DNA of 64,000 nucleotides from a virus (IMGVR_UViG_3300005264_000029:1-64000); one strand, 5' to 3'; positions 10,632-59,906 are shown, counted from the stretch's first letter. Numbers and translations: made by a program. The notes: generated by a model not told the origin, from the letters alone.

Positions 10632-10643
10632 TTAAATAGAGAA

Positions 10644-10772: not shown

Positions 10773-10785
10773 ATGGAATTTAAAA

Positions 10786-20679: not shown

Positions 20680-20746
20680 TCCAAACGAAGTGTTAGCGAA
20701 GTGCAGATTTATCTAAATAATTAATGTAATTAGTACATAATAAAAA

Positions 20747-25313: not shown

Positions 25314-25694
25314 ATGGAAGATAATCACGATAACATAATGTATCCGAAAGCATCGAAGACCGAAGGTCTGAGTTGCGATCGAAACGAAGTGAAGAGAGCA
25401 GTTAATAAAAAAGACTGGAAATTAGGTGATAAATTTATTAATGCTAGAAAATATAAATCTGGAGAGGATACATTTATTTACACTATATATCAGTTTCATA
25501 GTGACTGCACTAACTTTATATGTGCTAGATCAGAAGATGATTCATGTGGAATTTTATTTGAACCTGGAGAGATTATACCTATAAATGGAAAAATGTATAT
25601 AGAACTCATGGATACTAGAATAGCTAGAAAGGAACAGGAAGTAGCTGATCTACGAGCTGAGAGAAATGATATATTATATGGATTTAAAAAATGA
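25314..25694 (+). CDS. hypothetical protein (126 aa)
   Basis: ORF track; contains left arm of 58-bp inverted repeat. Confidence 0.45.
   Translation: MEDNHDNIMYPKASKTEGLSCDRNEVKRAVNKKDWKLGDKFINARKYKSGEDTFIYTIYQFHSDCTNFICARSEDDSCGILFEPGEIIPINGKMYIELMDTRIARKEQEVADLRAERNDILYGFKK
25343..25399. repeat. left arm of about 58-bp inverted repeat (partner 26594-26652)
   Basis: reverse complement matches partner with one indel. Confidence 0.8.
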
Positions 25695-26593: not shown

Positions 26594-26652
26594 GCTCTCT
26601 TCACTTCGTTTCGATCGTAACCTCAGACCTTCGGTCTTCGATGCTTTCGGAT
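26594..26652. repeat. right arm of about 58-bp inverted repeat
   Basis: see 25343-25399. Confidence 0.8.
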
Positions 26653-28645: not shown

Positions 28646-29434
28646 ATGGAAGAACTAAAAATAACTAATAAACATGAAAGAGATAGTAGGATAGTTTTCG
28701 ATGAGGAACCTCATATATACTATATAGATAAAGTAGCTTATGATATTTCTGTTACAGGATTTATTCATAAGTTCTTTTCAGAATTTAACCCAAAAGAAAT
28801 CATAGATAAGTATTATGATAAATGGCAACTAGATCAGTCGAGTAAATATAAAGGTATGAGTAAAGAAGATATAGAAAAGTCCTGGACAGATAATGGTAAG
28901 CTGCAGAGCGAACTAGGAACTAAGATGCATCTAGACATCGAGAACTTTTATAATGGAAAAGAAATCGATAATGATTCGATTGAATTCGAATTCTTTTTAC
29001 AATACTTTAGAAAGCATATATACTTAGAAGCATACAGAACCGAGTGGGAAGTTTTCGATGAGAAGCTTAAACTTGCAGGATCTATAGATATGTTATATAA
29101 AAATACTAAGACCAATAAATATGTTATATGTGATTGGAAAAGATCTAAAGAAATAAAGATGCGTAATAACTTTCAGAAGGGATCGAGTCCAGTTAGTCAT
29201 TTAGACGATTGCAATTTCAATCATTACTCATTACAATTAAATGTATATAAACGATTACTAAAAATCAATTATGATATAGATGTAGAAGAAATGTTTCTAG
29301 TAAGATGCCATCCAAACGCTTCAGACTATGAAAAAATTATAGTAAGTAATATGGATAAAGAAGTAGATCTACTTTTCACTTTTAGAGAAATGCAACTGAA
29401 TAAAGAAATTGATTTCAAATTTGATTGTATTTGA
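28646..29434 (+). CDS. RecB-family PD-(D/E)xK nuclease (YqaJ/lambda-exo/Cas4-like, no Cys cluster)
   Basis: 'GSIDMLY' (motif II), 'YVICDWKRSK' (hhDxK), 'YSLQLNVYKRLL' (QxxxY). Confidence 0.55.
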   Translation: MEELKITNKHERDSRIVFDEEPHIYYIDKVAYDISVTGFIHKFFSEFNPKEIIDKYYDKWQLDQSSKYKGMSKEDIEKSWTDNGKLQSELGTKMHLDIENFYNGKEIDNDSIEFEFFLQYFRKHIYLEAYRTEWEVFDEKLKLAGSIDMLYKNTKTNKYVICDWKRSKEIKMRNNFQKGSSPVSHLDDCNFNHYSLQLNVYKRLLKINYDIDVEEMFLVRCHPNASDYEKIIVSNMDKEVDLLFTFREMQLNKEIDFKFDCI

Positions 29435-29473
29435 AATTGAAATCAAAAACATTTTAATTCAAAATAATTTTTA

Positions 29474-29487
29474 CTAGGCATGCCTAG
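29474..29487. promoter_or_regulatory. perfect 14-bp palindrome CTAGGCATGCCTAG; first TGCCTAGA cluster (29474-29545)
   Basis: motif about 20 times in window vs about 6 expected, in four clusters. Confidence 0.5.
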
Positions 29488-29802
29488 ACCAGCACTAGAA
29501 AATCTAGGCATGATCTTGTTCTCTAATTTTTCCTAGGCATGATCTTGATCTCGATTTTTTCAAATTCTTATAAAATCAATTTCGTATTTAATATCAATCG
29601 ATTTCGAATTCAATTAAAATCAATTTCGAATTCAATCGAAATAATAAAACACCCATACGAAATCGATATAATACACTATTGAATAAAACACGAAATAAAC
29701 ATATTTTTCTAAGTAGTAAAAAAGTTTTTATTTTTCACTTTTTAGTTATAAAAATATACTCAAAAAATAAACTTATACTTTACTCTTTTATAGTGGTTAT
29801 AA

Positions 29803-29880
29803 AATGTTATAAACATTTAAGTAGTTATTTTATTATTAAGTGAAAAGATAAAACTTTTTATTTAAACTTTAAAAAATAAA
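29803..29880 (+). promoter_or_regulatory. promoter-leader copy 1 of hyper-AT island
   Basis: 'GGTTATAAAATGTTATAAACATTTAAGTA...AAGTGAAAAGATAAAACTTTTTATTTAAACTTTAAAAAATAAAAATG' similar to 32315-32396 and 36095-36180. Confidence 0.45.
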
Positions 29881-29881
29881 A

Positions 29882-30070
29882 ATGAATAATATAAAAATAA
29901 TAAAAAGTTTTGATTCATATAAAACTTATATTTTAGGAGTTAAAACAAAAATGAATATAAAGCAATTAAGGAGCTTAAAAAAGTTTTTTAATATGAGTAT
30001 TATAAAAAGTAATAATCTTTATAATATGGACTTACTAAGGACTATAAAAAGGAGTTATAAAAATGAATAA
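29882..30070 (+). CDS. hypothetical K/N-rich protein (62 aa)
   Basis: ORF track. Confidence 0.35.
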   Translation: MNNIKIIKSFDSYKTYILGVKTKMNIKQLRSLKKFFNMSIIKSNNLYNMDLLRTIKRSYKNE

Positions 30071-30359
30071 AGAAATAAAAAAATATGAAGTAAGAGAAAT
30101 AAACACAAGTGAAGTAATGTATAAACATTGCTTTAATAATGAAATTATTTATTTAGGTAATGATTTATATTTATTAGATATTGACAGTTTAGGCGATAGA
30201 GATTTTATATTATATGAATTTGAAGAAGATTTTATATTAGAAAATTCTACAAAAATAAATGATTCAGATTTAACAACAGAAGATATAAAAAACGAAATTA
30301 AATATTTAAAAACTAGTTTAGAAAATGATTTAGCAATTATAAAAAGTTTAGAAAAATGA
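30063..30359 (+). CDS. hypothetical protein (98 aa)
   Basis: ORF track. Confidence 0.4.
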   Translation: MNKEIKKYEVREINTSEVMYKHCFNNEIIYLGNDLYLLDIDSLGDRDFILYEFEEDFILENSTKINDSDLTTEDIKNEIKYLKTSLENDLAIIKSLEK

Positions 30360-30535
30360 ATAATTCAAAAATATATAAAGGTTATAAAATTATTTTCGAA
30401 CCAAAATTTAAAGGTTTTAAAGTAAATGTAAGTAAAAATAATTCTTTAGAAAGTGGACAAGAGTTTTTAAGTAGTAATATTGATACTGCTTTTAAACTTT
30501 CTAAAGAGTGGATAAATTTGGAGTTAAAAAAATGA
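30356..30535 (+). CDS. hypothetical protein (59 aa) with 'PKFKGFK' box
   Basis: ATGA overlaps; box shared with 30840 gene. Confidence 0.3.
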   Translation: MNNSKIYKGYKIIFEPKFKGFKVNVSKNNSLESGQEFLSSNIDTAFKLSKEWINLELKK

Positions 30536-30843
30536 ATAAAAAATATTATAGTATTGAAGAGTTTAAAGAATTAAAGGAATACTCAAAAGAGTATAATAAT
30601 ATTAAAAATGATTTAAAGGATTTTAAAAAATCTTATTGTTTTTATATTATAAAAATTAATAAAGAAAATATTGCTTTATTTGTATTTGATAAATATGAAT
30701 ATAATATAAATTTATACTATCAAAACGAAATTATAATTTATAATAATTTTGATAGTTTTGATTATTCAAGTATTGAAAAAAATTTAATAGATGAATATTA
30801 TTTAAAAGATTATATAACTAAAAAACTTGAGGTTTTAAAATGA
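30532..30843 (+). CDS. hypothetical protein (103 aa)
   Basis: track ORF 30508; start at ATGA junction. Confidence 0.4.
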   Translation: MNKKYYSIEEFKELKEYSKEYNNIKNDLKDFKKSYCFYIIKINKENIALFVFDKYEYNINLYYQNEIIIYNNFDSFDYSSIEKNLIDEYYLKDYITKKLEVLK

Positions 30844-31067
30844 ATAACCTATTCAAAAAAGATTTATTAAAACCTAAATTTAAAGGTTTTAAATTGTCTA
30901 ATAAAACAAAAGTTAAATTAAAATTTATTATTAAACATATTATATTTAATAAATTTTTTAATCATTTATTTAGTAGAAAAGAAAATTTAAATTTATATAA
31001 TGTTTTAACAAGTAAATTAAACCACAGAAAAATAAATATAAAAAAACATTATATTATTATAAACTAA
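30840..31067 (+). CDS. hypothetical basic protein (75 aa)
   Basis: ORF track. Confidence 0.35.
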   Translation: MNNLFKKDLLKPKFKGFKLSNKTKVKLKFIIKHIIFNKFFNHLFSRKENLNLYNVLTSKLNHRKINIKKHYIIIN

Positions 31068-31071
31068 AAAA

Positions 31072-31167
31072 ATGAATATACCAAATATATTAAAAAATAA
31101 AAGAAACGGCGACTTTATAGAAATTGAGTATAAAGAAAATTTAAATAATATGGAGTTAAGAAAATGA
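31072..31167 (+). CDS. hypothetical peptide (31 aa)
   Basis: ATGA coupling into RadC gene. Confidence 0.2.
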   Translation: MNIPNILKNKRNGDFIEIEYKENLNNMELRK

Positions 31168-31544
31168 AAAAAATAAAAATTTCAAATAGTGACGCAGTTT
31201 TTAAGAATATTAAAAAACATTTTGATTTATACCAAGAAAATTTTATATTAATTGGTATAAATTCAAATAGTGAAATATTATTAAATGAAGTAATTTTTAA
31301 AGGGGGTGTAAATAATTGTAACATTGATTTAAAGATTATATTTAAAAAATTATTATTAAATAATTGTACTAGTTTTTTTATTGCACACAATCACCCAAGT
31401 AAAAATTTAAATCCAAGTCAATCAGATTTAACAATAAATAATAAAATAAAAAAAGCTAGTGAAATATTAGATTTAAAATTATTAGATAGTTTAATATTTA
31501 GTGATAATAATTTTTATTCGTGTTTTGATAATGAGGTTTTATAA
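31164..31544 (+). CDS. radC: RadC-like JAB/MPN domain protein
   Basis: 'FIAHNHPSKNLNPSQSDL' matches JAB H-x-H-x(7)-S-x(2)-D. Confidence 0.65.
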   Translation: MKKIKISNSDAVFKNIKKHFDLYQENFILIGINSNSEILLNEVIFKGGVNNCNIDLKIIFKKLLLNNCTSFFIAHNHPSKNLNPSQSDLTINNKIKKASEILDLKLLDSLIFSDNNFYSCFDNEVL

Positions 31545-31968
31545 AGTGGTTAAATCAAAAATTATATTTATCAAAACTAAAGAAAATTGTTTTAAACAAA
31601 TTGGGAGTTTAAAATCTTTACATTTGGTTAAATGTAAAGTCATAAATGAATATATTACTTTAAATAATATTGTAAATAGACATAATCAAATTAAAGAAAA
31701 TACTACTTTAATAATTTTACATAATAAAAAAGAAGTGGAATTTAAATATAAAAAATCTAAGGAATTTAAATATATAAATTATGATAAATTACAAAACTTT
31801 TATTTTAATTTTTTACACGGATTTTTAAACAACTTTGAAAATATTTATATTATATATTTGAAGAGAAATAAACAATATTTAAAAGTTACACCTTTTAGTA
31901 ATATAAATAAAAATAGAGATAATTTTAAAGACATAATCACACCACTTTTAAAATTATATAATGATTAA
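31531..31968 (+). CDS. hypothetical protein (145 aa)
   Basis: track ORF 31501; ATG 31531 follows 'GAGGTTTTA' SD. Confidence 0.4.
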   Translation: MRFYKVVKSKIIFIKTKENCFKQIGSLKSLHLVKCKVINEYITLNNIVNRHNQIKENTTLIILHNKKEVEFKYKKSKEFKYINYDKLQNFYFNFLHGFLNNFENIYIIYLKRNKQYLKVTPFSNINKNRDNFKDIITPLLKLYND

Positions 31969-32047
31969 AAATAAAGAACGATATTAAAAATTTAATTTAA
32001 ATTAAAATATCTATTTGAATTAAAACGAAATTAAAGAACACAAACCG

Positions 32048-32110
32048 TGCCTAGATCTCGATGCCTAGATTTTAAAGAACAAACTGTGCCTAGATTTTTT
32101 TCTAGGCATT
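32048..32110. promoter_or_regulatory. second TGCCTAGA motif cluster (4 copies)
   Basis: GTGCCTAGATCTCGATGCCTAGATT...TGTGCCTAGATTTTTTTCTAGGCA. Confidence 0.45.
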
Positions 32111-32314
32111 TAGATAATCATTATTTTTTAACTATCTTAAAACATACCTTAAACTATAATATACTTATACTTAGAATATATAAAAGCATATAAGAAGACT
32201 TTTTTAAAAAGTAATGTTATGACATAACTTAAAACCTTTATACTTAAAATTTAAAATAAATATTATAGTGTCACTTGTCATTATATAAAAGTGTGTGTAA
32301 AATACACCACCTTA

Positions 32315-32396
32315 ACGAAAGGTTTATAAATACTTAAGTACTTATATAATTATCAAGTGAAGAGATAAAAACTTTTTACTTAAACCTTAAAAAATG
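32315..32396 (+). promoter_or_regulatory. promoter-leader copy 2; 32270-32347 near-identical to 36050-36127
   Basis: 'CGAAAGGTTTATAAATACTTAAGTACTTATATA' plus leader. Confidence 0.5.
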
Positions 32397-33368
32397 AAAA
32401 AAGAAATAAATAAAAAAACTTATGATTTAAAAAAATCACAAGATAATAAAAATAGTGAAGAAGTTATAAAAGCTAATATAAAAAATGTTAGTAAATTTAA
32501 TTTTAAAAAAAGTAATGAAATAATTAAAACTAATAATAATAAATTAACAACTTCAAGAGTTGCAATAAATAAAAAAGTTGAAGAGTTTAAATTTAATTTG
32601 GAACAAAAGACAAAAGAAGAAAATAAAAAACTAAGAGAAGAAACAAAAGAAGAAGAAGAAAACCAAGAGATTATAAACAAAACTAGAAGAGAGTTAAATT
32701 ATAGATTTAATTCTTTTTATAATTTTAAACCAAGTGTTTTAAACAATATGGATAAAATTAAAAACTTTGAATTTTATGAAAAAGGCGAAATTTTAAAAAC
32801 TTTTAAAGACGATAAAAAAGAGGGTTTAGTTTATTATCAAACTAATAATAATAATGTTAATTGTTATAGTTTAGGTTTTAGCTTTTGGAGTATTTACGAC
32901 ACTTTAAATTTATTAAATAATAGGTCAAGTGTTTTTTATCAAAATAAAATATACTTTTCAAATAGAGTTAGATTTAATTATAAAAATGAAAAAGATTCTT
33001 TTAATTTTCATACCGATTATTTAATAAAAAACTTTTCAAGTATTACAGAATTAAAAGAATATTACGAAAAGAACAAAAATAAAATCGAAAACAATATAAA
33101 TAAAAAACTTGAAATTGTAGAAAAAGAATTAAACCTTTATAATAAATTGTTTAAATCAAATTCAGATTTTAAAAAACATTTCCAAGAAGAAAAACTATAT
33201 TATATTATAAATAATTTTGGTTCAAGTATAAGAGATAACACTTTAAAAGATTGGGATAAAAAAAATAAATCAAATTACAATAATGAATTAATCGAAATAC
33301 TAAAAGATTTAAATTTAAAATTAGACTTTTCAAATAGATTTGATATTAAAGTTAAAGAGGTTTTATAA
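32394..33368 (+). CDS. large K/N/E-rich hypothetical protein (324 aa)
   Basis: ORF track; ends ...KEVL*. Confidence 0.5.
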   Translation: MKKEINKKTYDLKKSQDNKNSEEVIKANIKNVSKFNFKKSNEIIKTNNNKLTTSRVAINKKVEEFKFNLEQKTKEENKKLREETKEEEENQEIINKTRRELNYRFNSFYNFKPSVLNNMDKIKNFEFYEKGEILKTFKDDKKEGLVYYQTNNNNVNCYSLGFSFWSIYDTLNLLNNRSSVFYQNKIYFSNRVRFNYKNEKDSFNFHTDYLIKNFSSITELKEYYEKNKNKIENNINKKLEIVEKELNLYNKLFKSNSDFKKHFQEEKLYYIINNFGSSIRDNTLKDWDKKNKSNYNNELIEILKDLNLKLDFSNRFDIKVKEVL

Positions 33369-33369
33369 A

Positions 33370-33594
33370 ATGGTTTCTATGCAATATATAAAAGAATTAG
33401 AATTACAAGACGGAATAAGTTTAAACGCTTATTTTGAATATATTTATTTATCTTTAATTAATGGACAACGAACACAAGTAAAAGAATTAATTAATAAATT
33501 AAATAAACCACAGAAATTAAATTTTCACGATTATTTAAATATGGTTTATCAAAACACAGAATATAAAAACGAATTAATAAGAGGTTTAATTTAA
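33370..33594 (+). CDS. hypothetical protein (74 aa)
   Basis: ATG after 'GAGGTTTTATAAA'. Confidence 0.4.
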   Translation: MVSMQYIKELELQDGISLNAYFEYIYLSLINGQRTQVKELINKLNKPQKLNFHDYLNMVYQNTEYKNELIRGLI

Positions 33595-33595
33595 A

Positions 33596-33997
33596 ATGGA
33601 AAATATAGAAAAATTAAAAAACAAAGTTAAAGAATTAAACAATATTATTTATAATATGGAACAAGAAAAATTTTTAACTAAGGTTGAATGTGTAAAATTT
33701 AAAAATAATAATAATGGTGATGTTATTAATTTATTAAGAATATTAGATAAAGAATTAAAAAATAAATTAGAAATTAGAAATTTATATAGTTGTAAATTAA
33801 AAACTAAAAACTTTCTAGTGTCTTTTAATTATTGTAATAGAAAAAATAAAATATTATTTACTTTTGAAAAAGGTTATTTTTCTCATTGTGAATATATAGA
33901 CATAACAACAATAATTAAAAGATTTAAAACTTTAAGATTTGAATTATATTATAATATAGAATATAAAGAAATTAGCTTAAATATAAATATTAAATAA
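33596..33997 (+). CDS. hypothetical protein (133 aa)
   Basis: ORF track. Confidence 0.45.
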   Translation: MENIEKLKNKVKELNNIIYNMEQEKFLTKVECVKFKNNNNGDVINLLRILDKELKNKLEIRNLYSCKLKTKNFLVSFNYCNRKNKILFTFEKGYFSHCEYIDITTIIKRFKTLRFELYYNIEYKEISLNINIK

Positions 33998-33999
33998 AA

Positions 34000-34161
34000 A
34001 TGGAACGAAAAGAATATTTATTAAAAATAAAACAAACTAAAGAAGATATAAAAAACGCAGAAACTAAATATAAAGATTATTCAAATAAAAACGATATTAT
34101 ACATAATCTTAAAATAAGTTTAGATATACAAGAATTTAATTTAAAAGAGGGCAGATTTTAA
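34000..34161 (+). CDS. hypothetical protein (53 aa)
   Basis: ATG-to-stop frame. Confidence 0.3.
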   Translation: MERKEYLLKIKQTKEDIKNAETKYKDYSNKNDIIHNLKISLDIQEFNLKEGRF

Positions 34162-34163
34162 AA

Positions 34164-34409
34164 ATGGAATATTTGAAAACTAAAGATAATTTAAATTTAA
34201 TAGGAAAGAGAGCAAGAATAAAAAACAATGTTTTAGGATATTGTAGTTTTTTATATAATTGTGAAGGAATTATAAAAAATGTTAATGATAAAATTTATCT
34301 CGAATTTAATAAAATTGCATATAGAGATGAAACAGACAAAATAAATAAATCTCCTTTTGGTATGAATGGGGTTTATATTTGTTATGGAGTTATAGAGGTT
34401 TTAAATTAA
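34164..34409 (+). CDS. hypothetical protein (81 aa)
   Basis: ORF track; ends ...IEVLN*. Confidence 0.4.
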   Translation: MEYLKTKDNLNLIGKRARIKNNVLGYCSFLYNCEGIIKNVNDKIYLEFNKIAYRDETDKINKSPFGMNGVYICYGVIEVLN

Positions 34410-34410
34410 A

Positions 34411-34650
34411 ATGAGTCAATATAAAAAAGATTTAATAAAAGAAATGAAAAGTTTTAATATTGAAATTAATAAAAAAGGTATTATGAGCAAAGCACATATA
34501 TTATTAATATTAAATACTATTGATTCAATAAACGATTTAAATACTTTATATATTATAGGTCATAGCTTTTTTGAACAATTAGTATTTTTAAAAATTGATT
34601 CAAGAGATTATTTAAAAGTTTTACAAAGTAGATACAATATTAAAAAATGA
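34411..34650 (+). CDS. hypothetical protein (79 aa)
   Basis: ORF track. Confidence 0.4.
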   Translation: MSQYKKDLIKEMKSFNIEINKKGIMSKAHILLILNTIDSINDLNTLYIIGHSFFEQLVFLKIDSRDYLKVLQSRYNIKK

Positions 34651-34859
34651 AACAGAAAACAGAAATTAAAATAAAAACTAAAAGAGAAAATAAAGACTTT
34701 TCAAATAAGGATATAAAAGAAATAAGAAAAGAAATAAGAAAGAGCGTTAATAATTCACAGACTACCGAAGAAGATTTAAATTTAAAGCTTAATGAAATTG
34801 ATAATGTTTTAAAGAACAAGAAGAAAACACATAATAAATATTATATGAGAGAATTATAA
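34647..34859 (+). CDS. hypothetical basic protein (70 aa)
   Basis: ORF track. Confidence 0.4.
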   Translation: MKQKTEIKIKTKRENKDFSNKDIKEIRKEIRKSVNNSQTTEEDLNLKLNEIDNVLKNKKKTHNKYYMREL

Positions 34860-34912
34860 AACCTATTGGTTTTATATATCGACTAAATAAAATGAAAGGA
34901 GAATTATAAAAA

Positions 34913-35149
34913 ATGAATGAGGAACAAAGCGAAGAATTAATAAAAGTTTTAATTGATGTAAAAGAAGAATTAAAAAATATTGTAAAGGTCTTAAAACCTA
35001 AGCAAGAAATAAAAACCGAAATAGTTAAAAAACATTTATTATCTATGCAAGAGCAAAGACTTATAAGATTTAAAAATTATGTTACTTCAAATAATTTTTA
35101 TAATACATTAACAGAAAAACAAAAAGAAGAGTTATTAAATTTAAAATGA
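34913..35149 (+). CDS. hypothetical protein (78 aa)
   Basis: ORF track. Confidence 0.4.
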   Translation: MNEEQSEELIKVLIDVKEELKNIVKVLKPKQEIKTEIVKKHLLSMQEQRLIRFKNYVTSNNFYNTLTEKQKEELLNLK

Positions 35150-35418
35150 TGAAACAATATAAATATAAAATACAATGGTTAATTGATGTTAATAAGGACT
35201 ATAAATTTAATAATGAAATTAAACAATTATTAAATATTATAGGAGTAAGAAGTTTAGATAAAATTGTTTTAAGAGATAATGATTATAAAATTATTGATAC
35301 ATATAATAGTTTTATTTGTTTTCCTTATGGCTTAGCAGAAAAAGAAACTTTAAAATATATTAAAAAACAAGTTAAGAAAAATAATAAAATTGTTTATGTT
35401 GATTTTGTGAGGACTTAA
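35146..35418 (+). CDS. hypothetical protein (90 aa)
   Basis: ORF track. Confidence 0.4.
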   Translation: MMKQYKYKIQWLIDVNKDYKFNNEIKQLLNIIGVRSLDKIVLRDNDYKIIDTYNSFICFPYGLAEKETLKYIKKQVKKNNKIVYVDFVRT

Positions 35419-35422
35419 AAAA

Positions 35423-35593
35423 ATGAGTTGTAAATATAAATTAAAATCTAATAAACATAATTTAAATTGTTTATCTTTATTTGAAGTTGTAGAATATATA
35501 AAACTTTATGATAAGGATAATACTATAAATAAAATTGAAATAACAAAAGACACAATAAACAAAGAACAAATAAAACAATACTATAATATTTAA
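35423..35593 (+). CDS. hypothetical protein (56 aa)
   Basis: ATG-to-stop frame. Confidence 0.3.
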   Translation: MSCKYKLKSNKHNLNCLSLFEVVEYIKLYDKDNTINKIEITKDTINKEQIKQYYNI

Positions 35594-35767
35594 ACTTATT
35601 ATTACTTTTATATATTGTTTATTAAAGTCTTATTAGCTTTGATAAACTCATTTTTTAAAAGTTTAAGTATTAGTACAATTTTAAAATAAAGGTCTTAAAT
35701 AAACCTTTATATAATTCTATTAAATAAAACAAATTAGATATATAATAAAAAATATTTTTATACAGAT

Positions 35768-35935
35768 CATGCCTAGATTGAAAGTATGCCTAGATTTTTA
35801 AACTTACTTAGATGCCTAGAGTGAAATAATATTCACTACTTTAATATATTATATTGTTCTTAAAATAATTAAAAAATTAATGAAATTATATTATAATTTA
35901 AATTTAAATCAAGTGACATAAGTCTAGGCATCTAC
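35768..35935. promoter_or_regulatory. third TGCCTAGA motif cluster (4 copies)
   Basis: CATGCCTAGATTG...TATGCCTAGATTT...GATGCCTAGAGTG...GTCTAGGCATC. Confidence 0.45.
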
Positions 35936-36094
35936 TTTAAAGTTGTGTATAGAGTGTTTTAATACTTGTTAGTATCTTATATTAAATATTAGAAGAGATA
36001 ATAAAAAAGTAATGTTATGACACCCTAAAAATTAAAATACTCTATACACTCATATATTTAATTATATAAAGTGTGTGTAAAATACACCACCTTA

Positions 36095-36180
36095 ACGAAA
36101 GGTTTATAAATACTTAAGTACTTATATATTTATCAAGTGAGAGAGTCACAACATAGACACTTTTACTTAAACTAAAAATG
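36095..36180 (+). promoter_or_regulatory. promoter-leader copy 3
   Basis: near-identical to 32315-32396. Confidence 0.5.
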
Positions 36181-36324
36181 GATAACGAAAATAATAAACA
36201 AAACAAAAAAACAGAATTTAAGGATTTAACAATTATGTTAAAAGTTGGTTGTGTTGGTGGAGTAATTACAATTATAAGTTTTACTATTAATTTCTTTATA
36301 GGATTCTTTGGAGCTTTAATTTAA
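36178..36324 (+). CDS. small membrane protein (48 aa)
   Basis: ATG after leader; C-terminal TM. Confidence 0.35.
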   Translation: MDNENNKQNKKTEFKDLTIMLKVGCVGGVITIISFTINFFIGFFGALI

Positions 36325-42997: not shown

Positions 42998-43222
42998 ATG
43001 AATTTAGAAAATAATACAGACGGAAAAAGTACAATGACAATTCAATTGAGTAATATCATTGAAGAATTACATAAAGATAATAAATCAATTATCTTCGATG
43101 AGGCTATGAGTTCTATGGTTAAATTTGATAGAACAAAAGAAGACGAATTATTTAATATTGAACTTGAAAGAATATTACATAGAACAGAAAAAATAATTGA
43201 TAAACTAAATAATCGATTATAA
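42998..43222 (+). CDS. hypothetical protein (74 aa); last plus-strand gene
   Basis: ORF track. Confidence 0.4.
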   Translation: MNLENNTDGKSTMTIQLSNIIEELHKDNKSIIFDEAMSSMVKFDRTKEDELFNIELERILHRTEKIIDKLNNRL

Positions 43223-43367
43223 GCATACTTTTTATTTAATTTGATTTATGTATAATAAAACATATAATCTCTTTAAGATACTCGTTTCGTTACACTTCAA
43301 TCGTGACTTAATGTTCATTAAGATCAAGTGCCTAGACTTATACAAATTTATATTAATTCTTCCCACA

Positions 43368-43471
43368 CATATAACTTATATTCTTATTACATTCGAGAAT
43401 AAGTTTATTTCATATAACTTATATTCTTATTACATTCGAGAATAAGTTTATTTCATATAACTTATATTCTT
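43368..43471. repeat. 43-bp tandem repeat x2.4 with internal short hairpin, at convergent strand switch
   Basis: CATATAACTTATATTCTTATTACATTCGAGAATAAGTTTATTT twice plus partial. Confidence 0.85.
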
Positions 43472-43695
43472 TTAATATAAATATTATATCCTACAATGCA
43501 TTCATCATTAATATATTCTTCTGATTTGTTTAATACAGATTTATTAACTAATGATTTTATGCAACATATTAATCCTTTTTCTTTTGATAATATATCTAAA
43601 AAATCTGTTCCACTATTACCTAGATAATCTCGTGAATCATTATTCGCTTCTTTAATTTCTGTTCTCGGATAAACTTCAATTAATTTAGAATCCAT
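43462..43695 (-). CDS. hypothetical protein (77 aa), last gene of minus-strand block
   Basis: ORF track. Confidence 0.4.
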   Translation of the reverse strand: MDSKLIEVYPRTEIKEANNDSRDYLGNSGTDFLDILSKEKGLICCIKSLVNKSVLNKSEEYINDECIVGYNIYIKRI

Positions 43696-43803
43696 TATGC
43701 CTAGTTATGAATTTCAAAATTTATAAACCTTTGTTTATATATCTACTATAAATTTATACTTGCCTAGAATGTGAATTGTTTTCGATTGAATTCGAAATTA
43801 AAA

Positions 43804-43983
43804 ACGATTTTAATTATTAAGGCATGCCTATGCCTAGATGCCTATGCCTAGATAACATTTAATGAAGAATTCAATTGAAAATAAAAACTATTTTAATTAT
43901 TAAGGCATGCCTATGCCTAGATAACATTTAATGAAGAATTCAATTGAAAATAAAAACTATTTTAATTATTAAGGCATGTCTTA
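43804..43983. repeat. about 69-bp tandem repeat x2.5 containing GGCATGCCTATGCCTAGA iterons; fourth TGCCTAGA cluster 43690-43990
   Basis: copies at 43804-43887 (with 14-bp internal duplication), 43888-43956, partial 43957-43983. Confidence 0.85.
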
Positions 43984-43992
43984 ATAGAAGAA

Positions 43993-44232
43993 TTATTTAA
44001 TTTTTGTAAAATAGATGTTAAAATCAAAAGGTTTTTTCTTTGTAATCACAAGTGTATTATTAGGACCATTTAGAATCATTACATTATCAGTGTATCGATT
44101 TAAATTGTTTATGATTCTAGTAATATACGTTTCATTAATAGTCTTTTTGTCAAAGACTATTTGATTTTGTACTTTTAAATTACTGAACTTATTATATACA
44201 TCGAATTTTTGTGTTATTATTTTTATAGCCAT
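43993..44232 (-). CDS. hypothetical protein (79 aa)
   Basis: ORF track. Confidence 0.4.
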   Translation of the reverse strand: MAIKIITQKFDVYNKFSNLKVQNQIVFDKKTINETYITRIINNLNRYTDNVMILNGPNNTLVITKKKPFDFNIYFTKIK

Positions 44233-47900: not shown

Positions 47901-50232
47901 CAAAGTTAAACTCGTATCCATTAGCTAGTTCATCATATTCAATATGTTTGTCATTATATAGATCTGTAATTTCTGTTTGATTTAAAGCATAATCTAGGAT
48001 TACTACATTATCCATTTGACCTTTAAAATACGATGTTGATCCAATAGTTGATCCTAATTTATTAAAATATCTAGGTTCTCCTAAAGTCGCATCACCAGAA
48101 TAATCTAAAACACCATTTAAATAATATTTTACTGCTATATCATCTAATGTATAACATAAATGATTCCAATCCCCATCAAACACTGTTGAAGAAGATATTG
48201 CGAAATCTACGGCATTTAATGAATCATATAATATCAAATACATTTTATTGTTTGCTAATTGAATTCTAGTTTTTGGTGTAACAGTTCCTTCAATTAACAT
48301 ATTACTCGGTGATACTTCTGTACTTACCCATACACATGCCGTAAAATCATCTACTGCCATTGGGTCAAATAGAACATAATCATCTACACCATCAAACACT
48401 AATGACTTACCTAATACTCCAGATACTCCTTTACCTAATGTTGATGTACCTGCTCCTTCATCCATCTTGAATTCATATCCTTGCACATGATCTATAGCTG
48501 TATAATCTATTTCTCCTGTACTATATAGACTTGAAACCTCAGCAGGTGTAAGGGCGTGATCTAATATTATTACATCATCGATTTGTCCATTAAACCAAGA
48601 TTCAGGTCCACTTCTATATTTACCAATTAAGTATGAATGTACTGCATCTGGGTCGTATGTACCATCAGTTGTAGCACCAGCACCATCAGCTGCACCGTTA
48701 ATATAAGTTTTCATTGAATTATCGGTTGCATCATAAGTTGCAACTACATGTGTCCATCCTGATGCCGCAAGAATTGTACTTGTACTAGATGCTGTTACGG
48801 TTGTTCCTACAACTGTATATGTCAACTTGAATGTATTATCAGAAGACATATATATACCTGGATGAAGGAAATCTTTTGTAACAATAGCCATTGTAGTTCC
48901 GTCCACATCTTTATTTACCCATGCGGCTAATGTAAATGATTTATCAGCTTGTTCTTCATAAATACCTGTGTCAATATAATCTGCTGTACCATCGAAGTCT
49001 ATACCTCTAGTCGCATCCCATAGAGGACCATTAACTAAAGTACCTATTGTATCAGTTGCATATTGCTCGGCTCCACCATTAATAGTTGCAGGAAGATCTT
49101 CTGTACCACTTACAATATAGTTATCATCAACAACTGTTACATTATCATATCCCTCAAAAGAATATGATGCTTTCAGATTTGCCGATCTTACAGGTTTAGC
49201 TGAATGCATTTCTTTAAATATTTCATCTTGAGTAAGTGCAGCATCCCAAACTCTAAATTCATCAAATGATCCTTCAATAGTTCCATAAGAATTTGTTTGT
49301 ACTGGTCTATCAAAATTTAACCATAATGCTTGTGATGTTGGTGGAGATATTTGATATAATACACCAACTTCTGTTTGTTCTACACCGTTAATATATAGAG
49401 TTTTAACACCTGCAGTAGATACTGCAGCTATATGCACTTGTTCTCCTTTATCAAAATATCCAAGTTTTCCATTATACACACCATTATAACTTTGATATGC
49501 TACCTTCCATTGATCACCATAATCATTAATCAGTAATGCATTCCTATTATTTCCACCATTACCATTAACCCAAACATTTCCATATGCAGATCCAGGTCCT
49601 AAATTTTCTACATCAATCCATATAGATGTTGTATATGTTCCGGCCTCTGTAACAAACTCAAGTACATCATTTTCTATAGCTACATAATCATCCATTCCAT
49701 CAAATTCTAAATATTTCCCGAATTTACCACCAACAGCCTTACCTGTTGTTTCTACTCCTAGATCCTCGAAGTCGAAATCATATCCCTTAACGAACTTTTC
49801 AGTATTATATGTACTAGTTTCATAAAGTGTTCTGATCTCGTTTGCATCAAGTGCATGATCTAGGATTAATACGTCATCAATTTGTCCTTCCCAATAACTA
49901 TCTGCTGTAGTATCTCTTCTACCTAAAACATAACTTCTATCTGTACTTGCAATACTACCATTAGCATCTATATTATTTGATACTGAAAAACCATTATCAC
50001 CATTGTAATATCCTTTTAATTTTTCACCATCATACACCATTGTAATAAATAACCATTCATCATTAGAAAATAAATTGGAATCTAATTGAATAATAAATGA
50101 CCCTTCTGTTGTAGTTATATATCCTCTAATATCTCCACCACTTGATCCTCTTTGATGAAATACTATATCTCTATTATCATCATAAATATATCCATTACCA
50201 TTAATATCTCCCATCGATAACCACATAGACAA
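44980..50232 (-). CDS. giant secreted/anchored protein of LamG/ConA-like lectin domains with C-terminal TM anchor (1750 aa as called; first domain truncated)
   Basis: at least 8 'FDGVDDYV ... IDDVxILDxALxxxEIxxLY' units; called start is TTG, and the LamG motif 'VDDYVEIDN' continues upstream to 50292. Confidence 0.7.
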   Translation of the reverse strand: MSMWLSMGDINGNGYIYDDNRDIVFHQRGSSGGDIRGYITTTEGSFIIQLDSNLFSNDEWLFITMVYDGEKLKGYYNGDNGFSVSNNIDANGSIASTDRSYVLGRRDTTADSYWEGQIDDVLILDHALDANEIRTLYETSTYNTEKFVKGYDFDFEDLGVETTGKAVGGKFGKYLEFDGMDDYVAIENDVLEFVTEAGTYTTSIWIDVENLGPGSAYGNVWVNGNGGNNRNALLINDYGDQWKVAYQSYNGVYNGKLGYFDKGEQVHIAAVSTAGVKTLYINGVEQTEVGVLYQISPPTSQALWLNFDRPVQTNSYGTIEGSFDEFRVWDAALTQDEIFKEMHSAKPVRSANLKASYSFEGYDNVTVVDDNYIVSGTEDLPATINGGAEQYATDTIGTLVNGPLWDATRGIDFDGTADYIDTGIYEEQADKSFTLAAWVNKDVDGTTMAIVTKDFLHPGIYMSSDNTFKLTYTVVGTTVTASSTSTILAASGWTHVVATYDATDNSMKTYINGAADGAGATTDGTYDPDAVHSYLIGKYRSGPESWFNGQIDDVIILDHALTPAEVSSLYSTGEIDYTAIDHVQGYEFKMDEGAGTSTLGKGVSGVLGKSLVFDGVDDYVLFDPMAVDDFTACVWVSTEVSPSNMLIEGTVTPKTRIQLANNKMYLILYDSLNAVDFAISSSTVFDGDWNHLCYTLDDIAVKYYLNGVLDYSGDATLGEPRYFNKLGSTIGSTSYFKGQMDNVVILDYALNQTEITDLYNDKHIEYDELANGYEFNFEGDNIMTLGEAINNYEPKEVLGFDGVDDYVDLDIPMPGNDFTIGFKFITTQNADTVVMDKYGGSQGYTDRNMIGIQNGKIRAFCNSDGTALSKYSTGLYNDNNEHTVTITRSDTNVYIYVDGVLDSAHTGYCSGEISEADSHTVIGTYYDKINYWYQGKLDDIVILNQALNATEVLELYETGTLDYENLYDYRGTTVDLENPDLEFITGEPIFEREDRGVHFDGVDDYISVGSAEGLDLSLTNEYAISLWYNPESACNIDTLIKQRSTSNKMLIRCGANNRAEFYDWYSGTQHSVSGPATNLNTWNHIVAIRNDTAMHLYVNNELVTTINSIASGSVLTDNDFTISMGDALYNGDLDEIRIYNKSLSQQEVTDLYNEEYFKVSTDNLVANYDFNKHSNTEVLDVIDNQRHELVTPRFYVQNFSEGIYTNWYLDGTSSNKNNHVFYVDNTAPTLNISFPDTINLNDRTLNLTDYISITDLTPVTCNAQITEDGQVVQNLGSCYNASFIFSNLGNATVDISIYDSVSNNVEDNNTVNVDLYRINFTYSSAMTGNDIDYVTINESTIGNIGSTGNTSYYLTYINPGNYNFGSSKSQYGSKYTLFNKSNSTVFETLPITLGPVFNFSLLDEKDFGAFNISGAIIITLQTICEDSSVSQITITEDNFVVPINCEVEKLKFDLQYSDSSYFRTVRVDEDVLNQKVYLIDVLTTSAVTAVFNMFDLLNDYDDLSLSFKRNIEGTSQEITWDKTDAAGKVTAFLIQNEQYILEVESANQPIRSIGFYTATQSVVETLALFDLAFSVSQTVISDKVSVYSDQINGTVYGKWEDISGTTQEVKMEVRLDGPHGELVYTNTVVGQSSVELVYLTPAEYINRTLDVLVEGITDYGIVSDRDSMRENGEISLGLVNFNMDMNWIITIFLGFLALTLTAKSATAGSLVLSVVAAMMVYFGWFALSWVAISAAILLAILSMLREGEKQ

Positions 50233-50288
50233 TGTAAAAGTATCACTTCCAGAAATTTGATGTAAATTATCAATTTCTACATAATCAT

Positions 50289-53200
50289 CTACTCATAGTT
50301 TTCATAGTTTACTTTTCCTGTATTATATAGTTCAGTAATTTCTGCTTGTGTTAAAGCTACATCTAAGATCTTTACATCATCGATTTCTCCATCAAAAAAT
50401 TCACTAGTTCCTCCATAACTTCCAAAATATATTTCGTCAGGAATATTAGGTATATTAATATTTGCAGAAGTTCTTTGATTTTGTAAAACACCATCTAAAT
50501 ATGTTTTAAATCCATTAACAGTGTTTTTTTCCCAAGTTAATGTTATCATATGCCAATTATCATCATAATAATTTCCAAAAGATACTCCACCACCTACTCC
50601 ACCATCGAAAGATAATATTGCTTCATCATTGTATGGTAATACGATATAATCACCAGATTGTATTCTAAATGCACTTCTAGTTGTAGCGTCATCTGTTTTT
50701 ATAAATAAATTAATTGTTAATTTAGATCCAGATAAATCTATATTTTTATTATATTGAACATAATCATCAACACCATCAAAACTTACTCCCCTATCTGTAC
50801 TCCAAGTTACTCCATTTTCTAGACTTCCTTGAACTGCTGAATGAACACCTACTCCATTTGTTAGAGTTCCTGTAATATCTTGATCTCTTGTTATAGATCC
50901 TAGATCATAATTAAAACCATATAATTCATTTCCGGCATCTGCTGTACCTGTAATTAAATATACTTTATCATTATATTCAAATTGTGATGGTGTATTATAT
51001 AATCCTACATCTCCAATAGAATTAATTATTTCTAAATCCATTTGCCATGCTGAATCTTTCCATACATAACCATATACAACACCGTTATATTCACCAGCAA
51101 TTAAATATCTTTCTCCATTAACCTCAAATACATCAGGTGAAGCTCGCTGTCCAATATCTCCAAGTCCAGAAATATATGATGAATCTGATACCCAAGCATT
51201 TGTTACCCATTTAAAAGATTCAAATGTTCCATCTTCCATTCCAGATATTAATATCCAATCAGTACCATCATGATAAACTTCAGGAGAAGAATAAATTAAT
51301 CCTCTAGAATCTCCTGGTTCATCAATTATTCCGTTAGTTATTGCTGTGTTTACCGACCACGCAGATCCAGTCCATTCATATCCTCTATTCTGATCATTCA
51401 TACTTCCCATGATTAAATACCATGTACTATCCTTATAGAATACTGTAGATTGTAAATAATCAATTCCTTCAGTAATTCCAGCCTCTATTGGAGCGTTAGG
51501 TTTCCAAGATACACCATTCCATTCATAACCAGTACATTGCCCAGATGAAATACATTGAATATTGTAAAGATTACCGTCCATTGTAAATACTTCAGGTTGT
51601 ACTCCTGAACTTGATCCTGGTAATCCATTAAGTAAATTTGTATCAGCAAACCATTTCTGATCTGTTTCTAAATTATATCCGTCGAATGTTCCGTCTTGAT
51701 CACCAGTTATAGTGTACCATGTATTTAACATATAAAATGTTGAAGCTGTAGAATAAGTGCCAACATCAGAAAGTCCACTAATCACTTCGGCATTTACACT
51801 CCATGAAGATCCTCCCCATATATACCCATCGAAATCTCCTACAGAATTTCCAATAACTAAATATAAATTCCCATCTTTTTCAAATGTTTTTGGTTTAGAT
51901 CGGCTGCCTACATCTGGAAGTCCACTAATTATACCTGCATCAGATGACCATGAAGATCCTCCCCATATATACCCATTGAAAACACCGTCATGTTCACCAG
52001 ATATTAAATACCAATTATCATTCAGATAAAATATAGTAGGTGCAGAATGCGATCCTACATCTGGAAGTCCACTAATTATACCTGCATCAGATGACCATGA
52101 GGATCCTCCCCATATATACCCATCGAAATCTCCATCGAAATTTCCATTAATTAAATATAAATTTCCATCTTTTTCAAATGTTGTAGGTGAAATGTAAGAT
52201 CCAGAAAGTCCACTAATTATACCTGCATCAGATGACCATGATGATCCTCCCCATATATGACCATTTGCTGAACTTCCAGATATTAAATACCATTCATTAT
52301 CAACTTCGAAAACTACTAAATCAGCATATGATCCAACATCTCCTAAACCTGAAATGATTTGTGTATTTGACAACCATGGGAAATCGTTACCTGTAACAGT
52401 ATCCATTATACTTCCATCATTAGTTGTTTTACCATTTACACTTCCATATAATTCGGCTTGTGTACCTGCAACTTGATTCATATCATAAGCAGTTATACCT
52501 TCTGTTTCTTCGAACGAAAATGATGAAACTAGGTTTTCATTCCTTCTTGGAATAGATGACTCCATTTCAGCCTTAATTTCTTCTTGTGATAAGGCAGCAT
52601 CCCAAATTCTTACTTCATCAAGTGACCCGTTGAAATGTTGTATATCTAATGGGTGCGCTCCTAATGTATCAACTAAAGAATAATCAAGTGCGTGATTGGC
52701 TTCATTTTGTTGATCTATTAATATTCCATCTATATATAACTGTTGAACAGATGTAGCTCCAGTTTCCCAATAATTTCCACAGTAATAATGCCAATCTTTA
52801 TATTCATCATACGTGATTGGTGATTGAATTGTTCGTGCACCTGAATTATCAAACCGCCATACTATATCTGTATATGTTGTAAAATCTCTAAATCCTAAAG
52901 TATGTGTTTCACCTACAACCATATTAAATGATGTTACTGTACCTAACATATCAGAATTGTGTTTAGCCCATGTACAATATGTTAATGCCGTTGCTGTAGC
53001 GTCTGGAGTCATCATATCCATTGATATTTTATCGTCTACACCATCGAATTCTAATGCTTTCCCATATTTACCTGTAGCTGTTTCACCTACTGTAATTGTA
53101 CCTGTCCCTTCTGAGAAATCGAAGAAATATCCTTCCGTTCTATCTATTTCACTTAATGCAGATCTACCATTTTTATATAATTCTTGTACTTCAGTATTTG

Positions 53201-58367: not shown

Positions 58368-59906
58368 TTATAAGAACCTCATAACATCCATTTTCTTCTT
58401 AGGAACTCCTTTAGGTGCTGCAAATTTTCCACCTAATTTAGACATATCAAATCCTCCTGTTTTCTTTCCTCTACCAAGTAATCGCATATCAAATCCTTTA
58501 CTTTGAACTTGACCAGCTCCTGTGAATTGATGAATACTATCTACTCCTCTATTACCTTGACCAGCTCCTGTGAATTGATGAATACTATCTACTCCTCTAT
58601 TACCTTGAGAACCTCCTGTGAATTGCATGATTGACTCAGGTCCACTTCTTTGTTGCGACTGACCTCCTGTGAATTGTAATAATCTATCAGCTCCGCCAGA
58701 TTGTCCACCACCAAGTGCAGACCTTACATCTCCACCACGTCCTCCTGTGAATTGTAATATAGATGCAGCTCCTGCAGTTTGTCCTGCACCTCCTGTAAAA
58801 TCACTAACACTAGATTGAAATCCTAAAGATCCACCAGATTGACTACCGCCCATTGGAGCTTGTCCAGGACTTGCGCCTATCTGAGAGTATGAAACTGGAG
58901 CTTTTCCTTTAGTCATAGCTTCTAATGTCATTAATCTTTTAAATCCTGCTTTAGAACCACCAATCGCTAATAATTTCTTTTCATGAATAACAACTTTTGC
59001 TTTAGTTCTTCCAGCATGTTTCATTTTAATTCTATTACCATCAGCATCTAACACATATTCACCTTGTTTATTTTTCTTATAATAAACCCTTTCAGGTAAA
59101 CCCGGTAAATTATCTATAGAAATTCCTGAACCTTCATTTACAGCCATTGCACCTACTGAACTTACTGCTCCAGTAGTTTGATTTCCACCAAGTGCATTTC
59201 GTACACCATTTGAAGTTCCTCCACTTCCCTTAAGTAATGCTTTTAATCCTTCTTGTCCACTTCCACCAAGTGCTACTTTTTGTTGTACACTTCCTTGTCT
59301 ATACCCTGCAAGAGAATTAAGTACATCATTTTTTCTAATTCCTGTCATATCACCCATAGACGATAATACTCCTGATACTTTCGATTCTTGTTTTGTCTGT
59401 TCTTGTTTAGCTTGTGGTTCAGACTTAGGTGGTTCTTCTATTTTATTTTTTTGTATTTCTATATTATCAGCATCTGTTTTCATTCTAGCAAAGAAATCAT
59501 TTTCTGGTGGATTTGGAGCAGATGATGGAGCTACGTTATTTTGATATTGCATTACTTCTGCATCATTTTTCATTTTATTGAAAAAATTATCAGGTGAATT
59601 AACCCTTTCACCGGCAGATTTCATCTTTTCACTAAAACTATTATCGTTTTTTAATTTGTCAGCTGCAATATCCATTGCATTATTTCCAGATTTCAATTCC
59701 GGTTCTTGAGGAACATCTACATATTGTTCTCCTCTAGAATTCACTTGTGGTGTATTCATCATATTAGTATTACTTGACATACCAATTCCTGGATTACCTG
59801 TACCTGGAGTATTTAATACTGATCTATTAGGTTCATTTAACATAGTTTCCCCACCATATAATATACTAGGTTCTTCTTTAGTTTTAGAAATACTTTCTCT
59901 ATTCAT
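58368..59906 (-). CDS. Gly/Ser/Gln-rich protein with C-terminal tandem 16-aa 'VDSIHQFTGAGQGNRG / LQFTGG' repeats (512 aa)
   Basis: 48-bp nucleotide tandem repeat at 58513-58640 encodes the repeats. Confidence 0.55.
   Translation of the reverse strand: MNRESISKTKEEPSILYGGETMLNEPNRSVLNTPGTGNPGIGMSSNTNMMNTPQVNSRGEQYVDVPQEPELKSGNNAMDIAADKLKNDNSFSEKMKSAGERVNSPDNFFNKMKNDAEVMQYQNNVAPSSAPNPPENDFFARMKTDADNIEIQKNKIEEPPKSEPQAKQEQTKQESKVSGVLSSMGDMTGIRKNDVLNSLAGYRQGSVQQKVALGGSGQEGLKALLKGSGGTSNGVRNALGGNQTTGAVSSVGAMAVNEGSGISIDNLPGLPERVYYKKNKQGEYVLDADGNRIKMKHAGRTKAKVVIHEKKLLAIGGSKAGFKRLMTLEAMTKGKAPVSYSQIGASPGQAPMGGSQSGGSLGFQSSVSDFTGGAGQTAGAASILQFTGGRGGDVRSALGGGQSGGADRLLQFTGGQSQQRSGPESIMQFTGGSQGNRGVDSIHQFTGAGQGNRGVDSIHQFTGAGQVQSKGFDMRLLGRGKKTGGFDMSKLGGKFAAPKGVPKKKMDVMRFL

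Follow-up and report, generated by a model that had tools for sequence, protein, structure and literature searches.

We examined the stretch between positions 43,223 and 43,992 of a viral sequence of 64,000 nucleotides (nt) (IMGVR_UViG_3300005264_000029:1-64000, hereafter the window), a spacer in which two arms of oppositely oriented genes converge and which is packed with tandem repeats and copies of the octamer TGCCTAGA. The repeats look like one of several copies of a control module, made of the word TGCCTAGA, a palindrome and a promoter, that heads accessory operons of a probably archaeal, virus-like element. The spacer between 43.2 and 44.0 kb as a whole would then be a composite of terminator and operator/promoter sequences lying between operons and carrying recent duplications, a reading that we hold tentatively, as falling a little short of probable. 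A conserved control module in several copies fits regulator-binding sites with recent, unstable duplications better than an origin of replication or a packaging site, the functions for which the region had been put forward, together with an attachment (att) region, in a first-pass annotation made from the sequence alone.

The window contains the word TGCCTAGA 15 times, where 0.99 copies would be expected, and none of 100 shuffled sequences reached that count. All 18 copies of TGCCTAG in the window fall in four non-coding clusters between operons (29474-29541, 32048-32108, 35770-35930 and 43329-43921), and the further 14 kb analysed past the window ends contain none. The motif occurs at four spacers across 14.5 kb, so the strand switch is one of several sites. 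Clusters 1-3 lie in long spacers before three operons whose proteins are unrelated and which have in common one promoter/leader, at most 99% identical over 73 nt. Because the proteins of these modules are not paralogous, duplication of whole modules was rejected as the origin of the repeated operon heads. Cluster 1 is placed at the start of a low-GC (guanine plus cytosine) island, and cluster 2 includes GTGCCTAGA-TTTTTT-TCTAGGCAT at 32086-32109, in a 9-6-9 arrangement.

Distant relatives of the element, reached via a 139-aa protein and the integrase, extend this picture. In L122, which comes from the same sample as the window and whose neighbouring proteins are 43-59% identical, the same junction has a 268-bp spacer that holds all five TGCCTAG sites of the 8-kb contig (mean of whole-contig shuffles, 0.3), together with GGCATGCC and the palindrome TTCTAGACATGTCTAGAA. 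In L138, from another sample (SAMN12687858) and with an integrase 58% identical, the module occupies the spacer that immediately follows the integrase gene (int), in the form of TTCTAGACATGTCTAGA, two TTTTTCTAGGCAC sites, four ATTTCGAT repeats and the promoter AAAGGTTTATAAA. The motif is thus conserved across elements with proteins about 45-60% identical, and in L122 and L138 it is kept where the flanks diverge. These are features of an operator array: a short motif above chance, found only in non-coding control regions and retained in relatives. The octamer is a real, selected cis-element, and its earlier designation as an iteron stands in a loose sense. When IMG/VR was scanned for pairs of TGCCTAGA copies separated by 5-30 nt, at least 119 loci came back, none related to the window, and we discarded them as chance matches.

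The reverse complement of 43740-43992, cluster 1 and the int-downstream spacer of L138 align colinearly, and the three copies present the same order: palindrome, T-run with CTAGGCA sites, ATTTCGA repeats and promoter. This colinearity indicates that the 69-bp array of the strand switch is one copy of a conserved 'operon-head' module facing a minus-strand open reading frame (ORF), one unit of which was recently duplicated. The first-pass annotation had already noticed words shared with 29.58-29.64 kb, and rightly: the 20-mer AATTTCGAATTCAATCGAAA is exact at 29622-29641 (plus strand) and, inside the degenerate unit of the array, at 43780-43799 (minus strand). The palindrome TATTAAGGCATGTCTTAATA beside the 79-aa gene likewise aligns with CTAGGCATGCCTAG of cluster 1 and with TCTAGACATGTCTAGA of L122 and L138.

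The promoter that closes the module contains AAGGTTTATAAA, a 12-mer present in six exact copies in the window, each of which faces the gene next to it, as at 14047 (the TnpB gene) and at 32319 and 36099 (operon heads). It makes up the core of an extended promoter word, itself repeated, A(A/G)GTTTATAAAnnCTTAA...TTATAT (repeat families D10 and D14), the conserved part of which consists of a purine-rich stretch and TTTATAAA; the TnpB gene and the small ORF of the strand switch both have their ATG 23-24 nt further downstream. At the latter, AAGGTTTATAAA stands so close to the ATG at 43695 that the transcript is probably leaderless. Its shape suggests an archaeal promoter, with a B recognition element (BRE) and a TATA box, giving leaderless transcripts. 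The best NCBIfam matches of TatC, the signal peptidase and the recombinase are archaeal models, all under their cut-offs; taken with the promoter shape, they suggest an archaeal host. A scan for bacterial sigma-70 promoters gave fewer matches than the shuffle mean and detected no intrinsic hairpin terminator, results that point the same way. For the small ORF, one TGCCTAG copy (43698-43704) falls within the interval from TATA-like box to ATG, the interval in which archaeal repressors typically act. The form A(A/G)GTTTATAAAnnCTTAAnnnnTTATAT of the promoter word was observed at 1967, 4730, 11074, 14047, 15382, 21100, 32319, 36099 and, on the minus strand, 43720.

The anatomy of the strand switch (Table 1) agrees in part with its initial description. 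Nearly all genes of 1-43222 are on the plus strand and all genes of 43462-64000 on the minus strand; the convergent switch after a last plus-strand stop at 43222 was correctly recognised. The region is not wholly intergenic, as had been assumed, since a minus-strand ORF lies within it. In the window sequence, the 43-bp repeat was confirmed in extent and copy number. Its internal hairpin exists (CTTATT-9 nt-AATAAG in each unit, followed by TTTATTT on the plus strand) and is weak, the fold of the entire array having -7.4 kcal/mol (z = -2.2). The repeat of roughly 69 bp, reported as 2.5 copies at 43804-43983, is real, with other limits: perfect copies number 2.0 and span 43838-43978, the count becoming 2.4 at 90% identity when the repeat is followed up to 44001, and with an older unit the array covers 43755-43990. 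Each perfect unit contains TGCCTA/TGCCTAGA, the palindrome TTCAATTGAA, AAAAACTATTTTAATT and AGGCATGCCT; on the minus strand AAAAACTATTTTAATT is a T5/T4 run, terminator-like for the minus arm. Sites do occur where isolated copies had been listed at 43698 and 43763, the former being TGCCTAGT rather than the full octamer and the latter starting at 43761; the exact copy at 43329 had gone unlisted. The supposed inverted copy of a leader word at 43283-43310 does contain CGAAACGA and GAAGTG, in an order that differs from that in CGAAACGAAGTG, so that it is a loose copy only.

Table 1. Location of the features discussed, in window coordinates.
Feature	Position	Strand	Remarks
XerA-like tyrosine recombinase (integrase)	19717-20661		314 aa; best NCBIfam match archaeal XerA, far under cut-off
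Cluster 1, full module copy	29436-29660	+	palindrome CTAGGCATGCCTAG, 3 x CTAGGCATG, 22-bp ATTTCGAATTCAAT repeats x3.5
Cluster 2	32048-32108	+	TGCCTAGA orientations +,+,+,-; 215 nt upstream of conserved promoter and leader
Cluster 3	35770-35930	+	TGCCTAGA orientations +,+,+,-; 173 nt upstream of 99%-identical copy of the cluster 2 promoter/leader
Final plus-arm gene	42998-43222	+	74 aa; no family match, no homologue in L122
Oligo-T run TTTTTATTT	43229-43237	+	7 nt past stop codon; resembles a plus-arm terminator
Loose inverted CGAAACGA/GAAGTG word copy	43282-43309	-	minus strand reads AAGTCACGATTGAAGTGTAACGAAACGAG
Isolated TGCCTAGA site GTGCCTAGACTTAT	43329-43336	+	flank identical to inverted site at 35923
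43-bp tandem repeat	43368-43471		x2.4, 100% identity; starts within 3' end (last codons) of minus-strand ORF
Small minus-strand ORF	43462-43695	-	77 aa in window, 107 aa in ENA scaffold
TGCCTAG site TGCCTAGT	43698-43704	+	7/8 of the octamer; operator-like position
Promoter word AAGGTTTATAAA, BRE/TATA-like	43720-43731	-	ends 24 nt upstream of ATG at 43695
Older degenerate unit of 69-bp array	43755-43823		61% identical; repeat family D17; TGCCTAGA at 43761-43768
Perfect 69-bp units	43838-43906, 43907-43975		preceded from 43824 by 14-bp duplication of TGCCTATGCCTAGA
Imperfect palindrome TATTAAGGCATGTCTTAATA (7-6-7)	43967-43986		beside stop of 79-aa gene
Last conserved minus-arm gene	43993-44232	-	79 aa; homologues in L122, L124, L136 mark equivalent junction

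Single-strand folding of the repeat units gave z values from -0.3 to -2.2, and these weak folds do not favour a structured RNA or DNA element. A CRISPR-like (clustered regularly interspaced short palindromic repeats) mini-array, considered for the 69-bp period, was rejected because its 'spacers' are identical in both units and the units are colinear with non-arrayed copies elsewhere.

The perfect copies appear to be young. An ENA scaffold of 126,202 bp (SAMN06288063) is 100% identical to the window over the shared 20 kb except in three places: it has one 69-bp unit fewer, a 100-N gap with extra sequence in the 43-bp array, which lengthens the small ORF to its 107-aa form, and 101 nt extra in the Laminin_G_3 gene. 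A Logan contig terminates within the 69-bp array. Since copy number varies across near-identical assemblies, two of them apparently of one sample, it either depends on the assembly or differs within the population. The perfect copies of the 43-bp and 69-bp units are therefore likely products of recent slippage or duplication, and the 69-bp duplication would multiply the putative binding sites.

A close parallel for such repeats is found in Borgs, linear elements of 0.6-1.1 Mb associated with Methanoperedens, with about 33% GC and terminal inverted repeats (PMC9879509). Their perfect tandem repeats, counted from a threshold of at least three units, are head-to-tail, locus-specific and fast-evolving, and their replichore switch was read from the cumulative GC skew (PMC9879509). 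As in Borgs, the units here are perfect and head-to-tail, occur in intergenic DNA and in genes, can begin in the 3' end of an ORF, vary in copy number and are handled poorly by assemblers, and single-strand gene arms meet at a peak of cumulative GC skew. The window repeats also agree with the Borg type in being 100% identical between units, absent from L122 and variable between assemblies. In contrast, the present element has about 126 kb and 16-35% GC, the sequence analysed gave no sign of a Methanoperedens host or of terminal inverted repeats, its repeats reach only 2-2.4 copies, below the threshold of that study, and its 69-bp unit carries a motif conserved elsewhere whereas Borg units are locus-specific. 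By this analogy, the 43-bp array appears to behave like the young, perfect, locus-specific tandem repeats of Borgs. Perfect or near-perfect in-frame tandem repeats were also observed within genes, of 27 bp x3.9, 15 bp x2.8 and 48 bp x2.5 in the window (1-137 and 58508-58630) and of 39 bp x5.1 in L124 (7371-7568), a pattern resembling the amino-acid tandem repeats of Borgs.

Read along the minus strand, from right to left, the organisation that we propose would be the following. The minus arm closes with conserved genes for a giant fibre/adhesin and for proteins of 139, 97 and 79 aa, in this order, and its transcription would run into oligo-T tracts (GTTTTTATTTT on the minus strand) within the 69-bp units. 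Next would come the operon-head module, with its CATG-centred palindrome, TCTAGGCA sites and ATTTCGA-type palindrome, followed by the BRE/TATA-like promoter AAAGGTTTATAAA, one further TGCCTAG overlapping the probable transcription start, the small gene, an ORFan, and lastly the 43-bp repeat, which abuts the oligo-T end of the plus arm. Oligo-T tracts would terminate both arms, TTTTTATTT at 43229-43237 on the plus strand and GTTTTTATTTT on the minus strand in each 69-bp unit. The sequence (A/G)TGYCTAGA may be the half-site of a putative DNA-binding protein encoded by the element, and the palindromic versions CTAGGCATGCCTAG and TCTAGACATGTCTAGA would accept a dimer. The arrays would set or insulate the expression of the accessory (cargo) operons located between the integrase and the tail-like arm; protein binding and regulatory effect are both what sequence arrangement leads us to expect.

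Operator arrays of this general kind are familiar on mobile elements, including the omega heptads of pSM19035, the KorB O_B sites of RK2 and the tandem F55 sites of the Sulfolobus virus SSV1. The resemblance lies in a short motif (7-13 bp) that recurs, both directly and inverted, at more than one promoter region of the same element, in a variable number of sites per array, and in the position of the sites, some apparently overlapping the core promoter and others at least 100 bp away. The motif sequence is unrelated to theirs, however, the promoters here look archaeal (BRE/TATA), the sites are joined with ATTTCGA repeats and a CATG-centred palindrome into a colinear module of about 200 bp, and the cognate regulator was not found here.

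This last point is the chief weakness of the operator reading, against which several other observations also weigh. About 50 cargo ORFs gave no DNA-binding Pfam domain, with no helix-turn-helix, ribbon-helix-helix or zinc-ribbon family among them; the cognate binder could have a novel fold or be encoded beyond the window. The only winged-helix candidate nearby is in L122 (a weak match to Penicillinase_R) and has no homologue in the window. The small ORF, checked in its 107-aa form as a candidate binder, showed no family and no homologue outside the element, and as an ORFan it may not be a real gene. The sites of clusters 1-3 lie 170-260 nt upstream of the TATA box, beyond typical operator distance, and the spacing and orientation of sites are irregular. 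The motif was not found in the available segments of L124 (JGI metagenome 3300041991; 139-aa protein 46% identical), L135 and L136 (Logan run SRR28495928; integrase 49% identical). Lastly, an archaeal host is only suggested, by promoter shape and by weak archaeal NCBIfam matches.

Among the alternatives, an iteron-type origin, or a set of cis-acting replication regions, is unlikely. On this reading an initiator would recognise both the TGCCTAGA octamers and the 22-bp ATTTCGA repeats, next to AT-rich DNA, and several clusters might act together, as do the octamer iterons at ori and crr of the satellite phage P4. Cluster 1 has the appropriate form, its 3.5 repeats being spaced at 22 bp and leading into some 240 bp of very AT-rich sequence; L138 and L122 both keep the set of motifs, and 43.2-44.0 kb carries partial module copies, tandem duplications included. 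The strand-switch copy itself has a single exact ATTTCGA 20-mer and units spaced 69-83 bp, and an AT-rich neighbourhood discriminates origins poorly because the whole island is AT-rich. No Rep, Orc (Orc1/Cdc6), MCM or primase domain was detected among the cargo and flanking ORFs, the three colinear copies precede unrelated genes, and the cargo region and junction spacer are missing or tiny in L124 and L136. GC skew, which had been named as a check of the origin proposal, keeps its sign at 29.5, 32 and 35.8 kb, and at 43.5 kb its polarity is that of a terminus, the cumulative curve having its maximum, not its minimum, at 43-44 kb. This flip coincides exactly with that of the coding strand, so it brings no independent information. 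The comparison of repeats among relatives was equally unfavourable to the proposal: the tandem repeats are absent from L122, the sole relative that keeps the spacer and one whose junction has no tandem repeat and no small ORF, while the junction spacer is 0 bp in L124 and the convergent genes overlap by 8 bp in L136. A function as origin or packaging site specific to the strand switch is thus not borne out, the motif being present at four spacers with no initiator or terminase gene found nearby.

The satellite phage P4 offers the nearest model for an origin of this type, its octamer type I iterons at ori and crr being bound by the alpha primase-helicase encoded nearby. Here too an 8-bp word forms clusters at separate loci with several kb between them, and one of these loci consists of long direct repeats in tandem, each with several copies. 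The differences are that no alpha-like primase-helicase was found, that there are four or five clusters instead of two, and that the clusters lie in a cargo region that relatives are without.

We likewise consider it improbable, to about the same degree, that the sites are attP-like or cassette-boundary sites of the XerA-like tyrosine recombinase, with palindromes as cores and direct copies at module boundaries as traces left by the stepwise uptake of cargo. In L138 the module follows directly on the 3' end of the integrase gene, which gives some substance to the att region of the first-pass annotation, yet in the window the integrase is 23 kb away. The backbone ends with int on one arm and with the fibre, 139-aa, 97-aa and 79-aa genes on the other; the distance from int to the junction is 0.6 kb in L124, 3.3 kb in L136 and 23 kb in the window, which marks the intervening DNA as a hypervariable slot for cargo. 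All the motif clusters between the integrase and the tail-like arm lie in the low-GC island (29.4 to about 44.0 kb), which is bounded by the two fullest module copies, and the 9-6-9 architecture in cluster 2 resembles a recombinase core site. On the other hand, the spacer downstream of the window's own int has a different conserved hairpin, AAACGAAGTG, common to L135, together with other shared words; the inverted half-sites are separated by inconsistent spacers (0, 6, 10, 14 and about 100 nt); and L124, L135 and L136 possess the integrase while showing no motif in the segments available. In lambda-type attP-int arrangements, the tyrosine recombinase gene is followed directly, on its 3' side, by a complex site of about 250 bp that bears repeats. 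L138 matches that arrangement; cargo genes gather between int and the late/lysis end in both systems, whereas the window has four or five copies of the module, at 9-23 kb from int, and no arm-binding domain was identified in the 314-aa recombinase. A more elaborate version, a still slimmer prospect, would make the palindrome-plus-TGCCTAGA module the site at which the XerA-like integrase takes up and stacks promoter-bearing cassettes of cargo between int and the tail-like arm, as on an integron-like platform, the strand-switch copy being the distal boundary with the newest cassette (the ORFan gene and the 43-bp repeat).

Directly 3' of the integrase gene, the window carries at 20665-20723 a perfect hairpin with a 15-bp stem and CCAAACGAAGTG in its loop. 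The equivalent hairpin of L135 (loop ACAAACGAAGTG) is inside a perfect 64-bp tandem repeat at 5144-5270, and the word AAAAAAGTCTTCT...GGCTCTAA is common to the int-downstream spacers of the window, L135 and L138. These hairpins and words are better candidates for attP than the strand-switch region.

It is very unlikely that the junction is a replication terminus or a dimer-resolution (dif-like) site placed where the one-strand arms meet: the cumulative skew peak, the convergent arms, the 7-6-7 palindrome at 43967-43986 and the archaeal XerA likeness of the recombinase, far under cut-off as it is, would suit such a site, but the skew flip is the coding-strand flip, the motif also occurs 8-14 kb away within the plus arm, and relatives with the same convergent junction lack the spacer. 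A packaging (pac or cos) site or genome terminus is scarcely credible, since nothing speaks for it beyond a repeat-rich region at which assemblies tend to break (L002, L128 and L129 end at or in the junction), breaks for which dispersed module copies are enough to account, while the site is mid-contig in contigs of 125-126 kb, follows tail-fibre-like (giant Laminin_G_3) and small membrane-protein genes with no terminase gene beside it, and is in a spacer absent from L124 and L136.

The element to which the strand switch belongs is very AT-rich, GC over the 64-kb window being 16-35%, and the JGI contig matching the window has 125,063 bp; L128, L129 and L130 stop at the junction or short of it. 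None of the element sequence analysed yielded a recognisable capsid, portal or terminase family, which leaves the viral nature of the element itself unproven. Cellular-type auxiliary proteins, which a virus-like element would not usually carry, are encoded on the plus arm: TatC (732-1436), an SPFH/flotillin-like protein (2242-3621) and an ATP-dependent DNA ligase (4778-6157). At 29400-36200 the island falls to 16-20% GC, against 25-33% elsewhere, and encodes lysine/asparagine-rich ORFans as well as a RadC-like JAB protein (31164-31544, E = 4e-29); this part is probably separately acquired cargo. About 8-10 kb past the right window end, contig L133 (253-2392) has, upstream of the tail-like module, two neighbouring genes with intein-splicing domains and a 998-aa protein of which the window has only the 570-aa C-terminal part. 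The 101 nt missing from the window at 50232-50294 (L001 4588-4690; L002 1545-1647) are present in the ENA scaffold and in a Logan contig. Their absence alone makes the 1750-aa and 2510-aa Laminin_G_3 ORFs separate, elsewhere a single ORF of more than 4,353 aa, and the split of this giant fibre/adhesin gene is either an assembly error or a real frameshift variant.

Several other repeated or mobile sequences were noticed. The TnpB gene at 14082-15341 on the plus strand (NF040570, E = 1.5e-50) is preceded by two small ORFs, 13335-13628 (minus) and 13788-14015 (plus), which are inverted paralogues 62% identical; one of them is 96% identical to ORF 674-901 of L138, unlike the backbones of L138 and the window, which are only about 60-70% identical. 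This suggests a recently mobile unit associated with an insertion sequence. A near-perfect inverted repeat pair of 58 nt (31 nt at 100% and 28 nt at 96%), containing CGAAACGAAGTG, flanks a 1.2-kb segment with an S24/S26 peptidase-like gene (25342-25399 and 26594-26652) and looks like an invertible segment or the termini of a small mobile element. At 6400-10800, small paralogous genes form an array with the common start-region word CAATTAGATTAAGACAAATG in seven copies; it includes long repeats, 7407-7510 being identical to 10642-10745 and 7189-7353 matching 7794-7958 at 84%.

No relatives turned up in the phage, IMG/VR, JGI-contig and GTDB collections searched. The DNA of 42.5-45 kb had no match among 50,697 phage records, and IMG/VR, JGI metagenome contigs and GTDB genomes, scanned under the guidance of the 139-aa and integrase protein families, returned nothing of use. 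Permissive thresholds yielded no Rfam match over 29-45 kb, no tRNA or tmRNA was found, and literature searches on the repeated motif returned no match.

The element family and its sequences are new, while the kind of arrangement is known: arrays of short binding motifs in control spacers, combined with tandem duplications of the slippage type. On present evidence the strand switch reads as a rather unremarkable spacer for control and termination, in which tandem duplications have recently arisen. If the sites were recombination sites rather than operators, they would point to a new mechanism of cargo capture. Accessory genes turn over in the cargo slot, whose length differs among relatives (0.6 to 23 kb). 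For this unsampled family of very AT-rich, virus-like integrative elements of about 125 kb, the promoter word, the half-site (A/G)TGYCTAGA, the second repeat type and the colinear 'operon-head' module provide a first cis-regulatory vocabulary.

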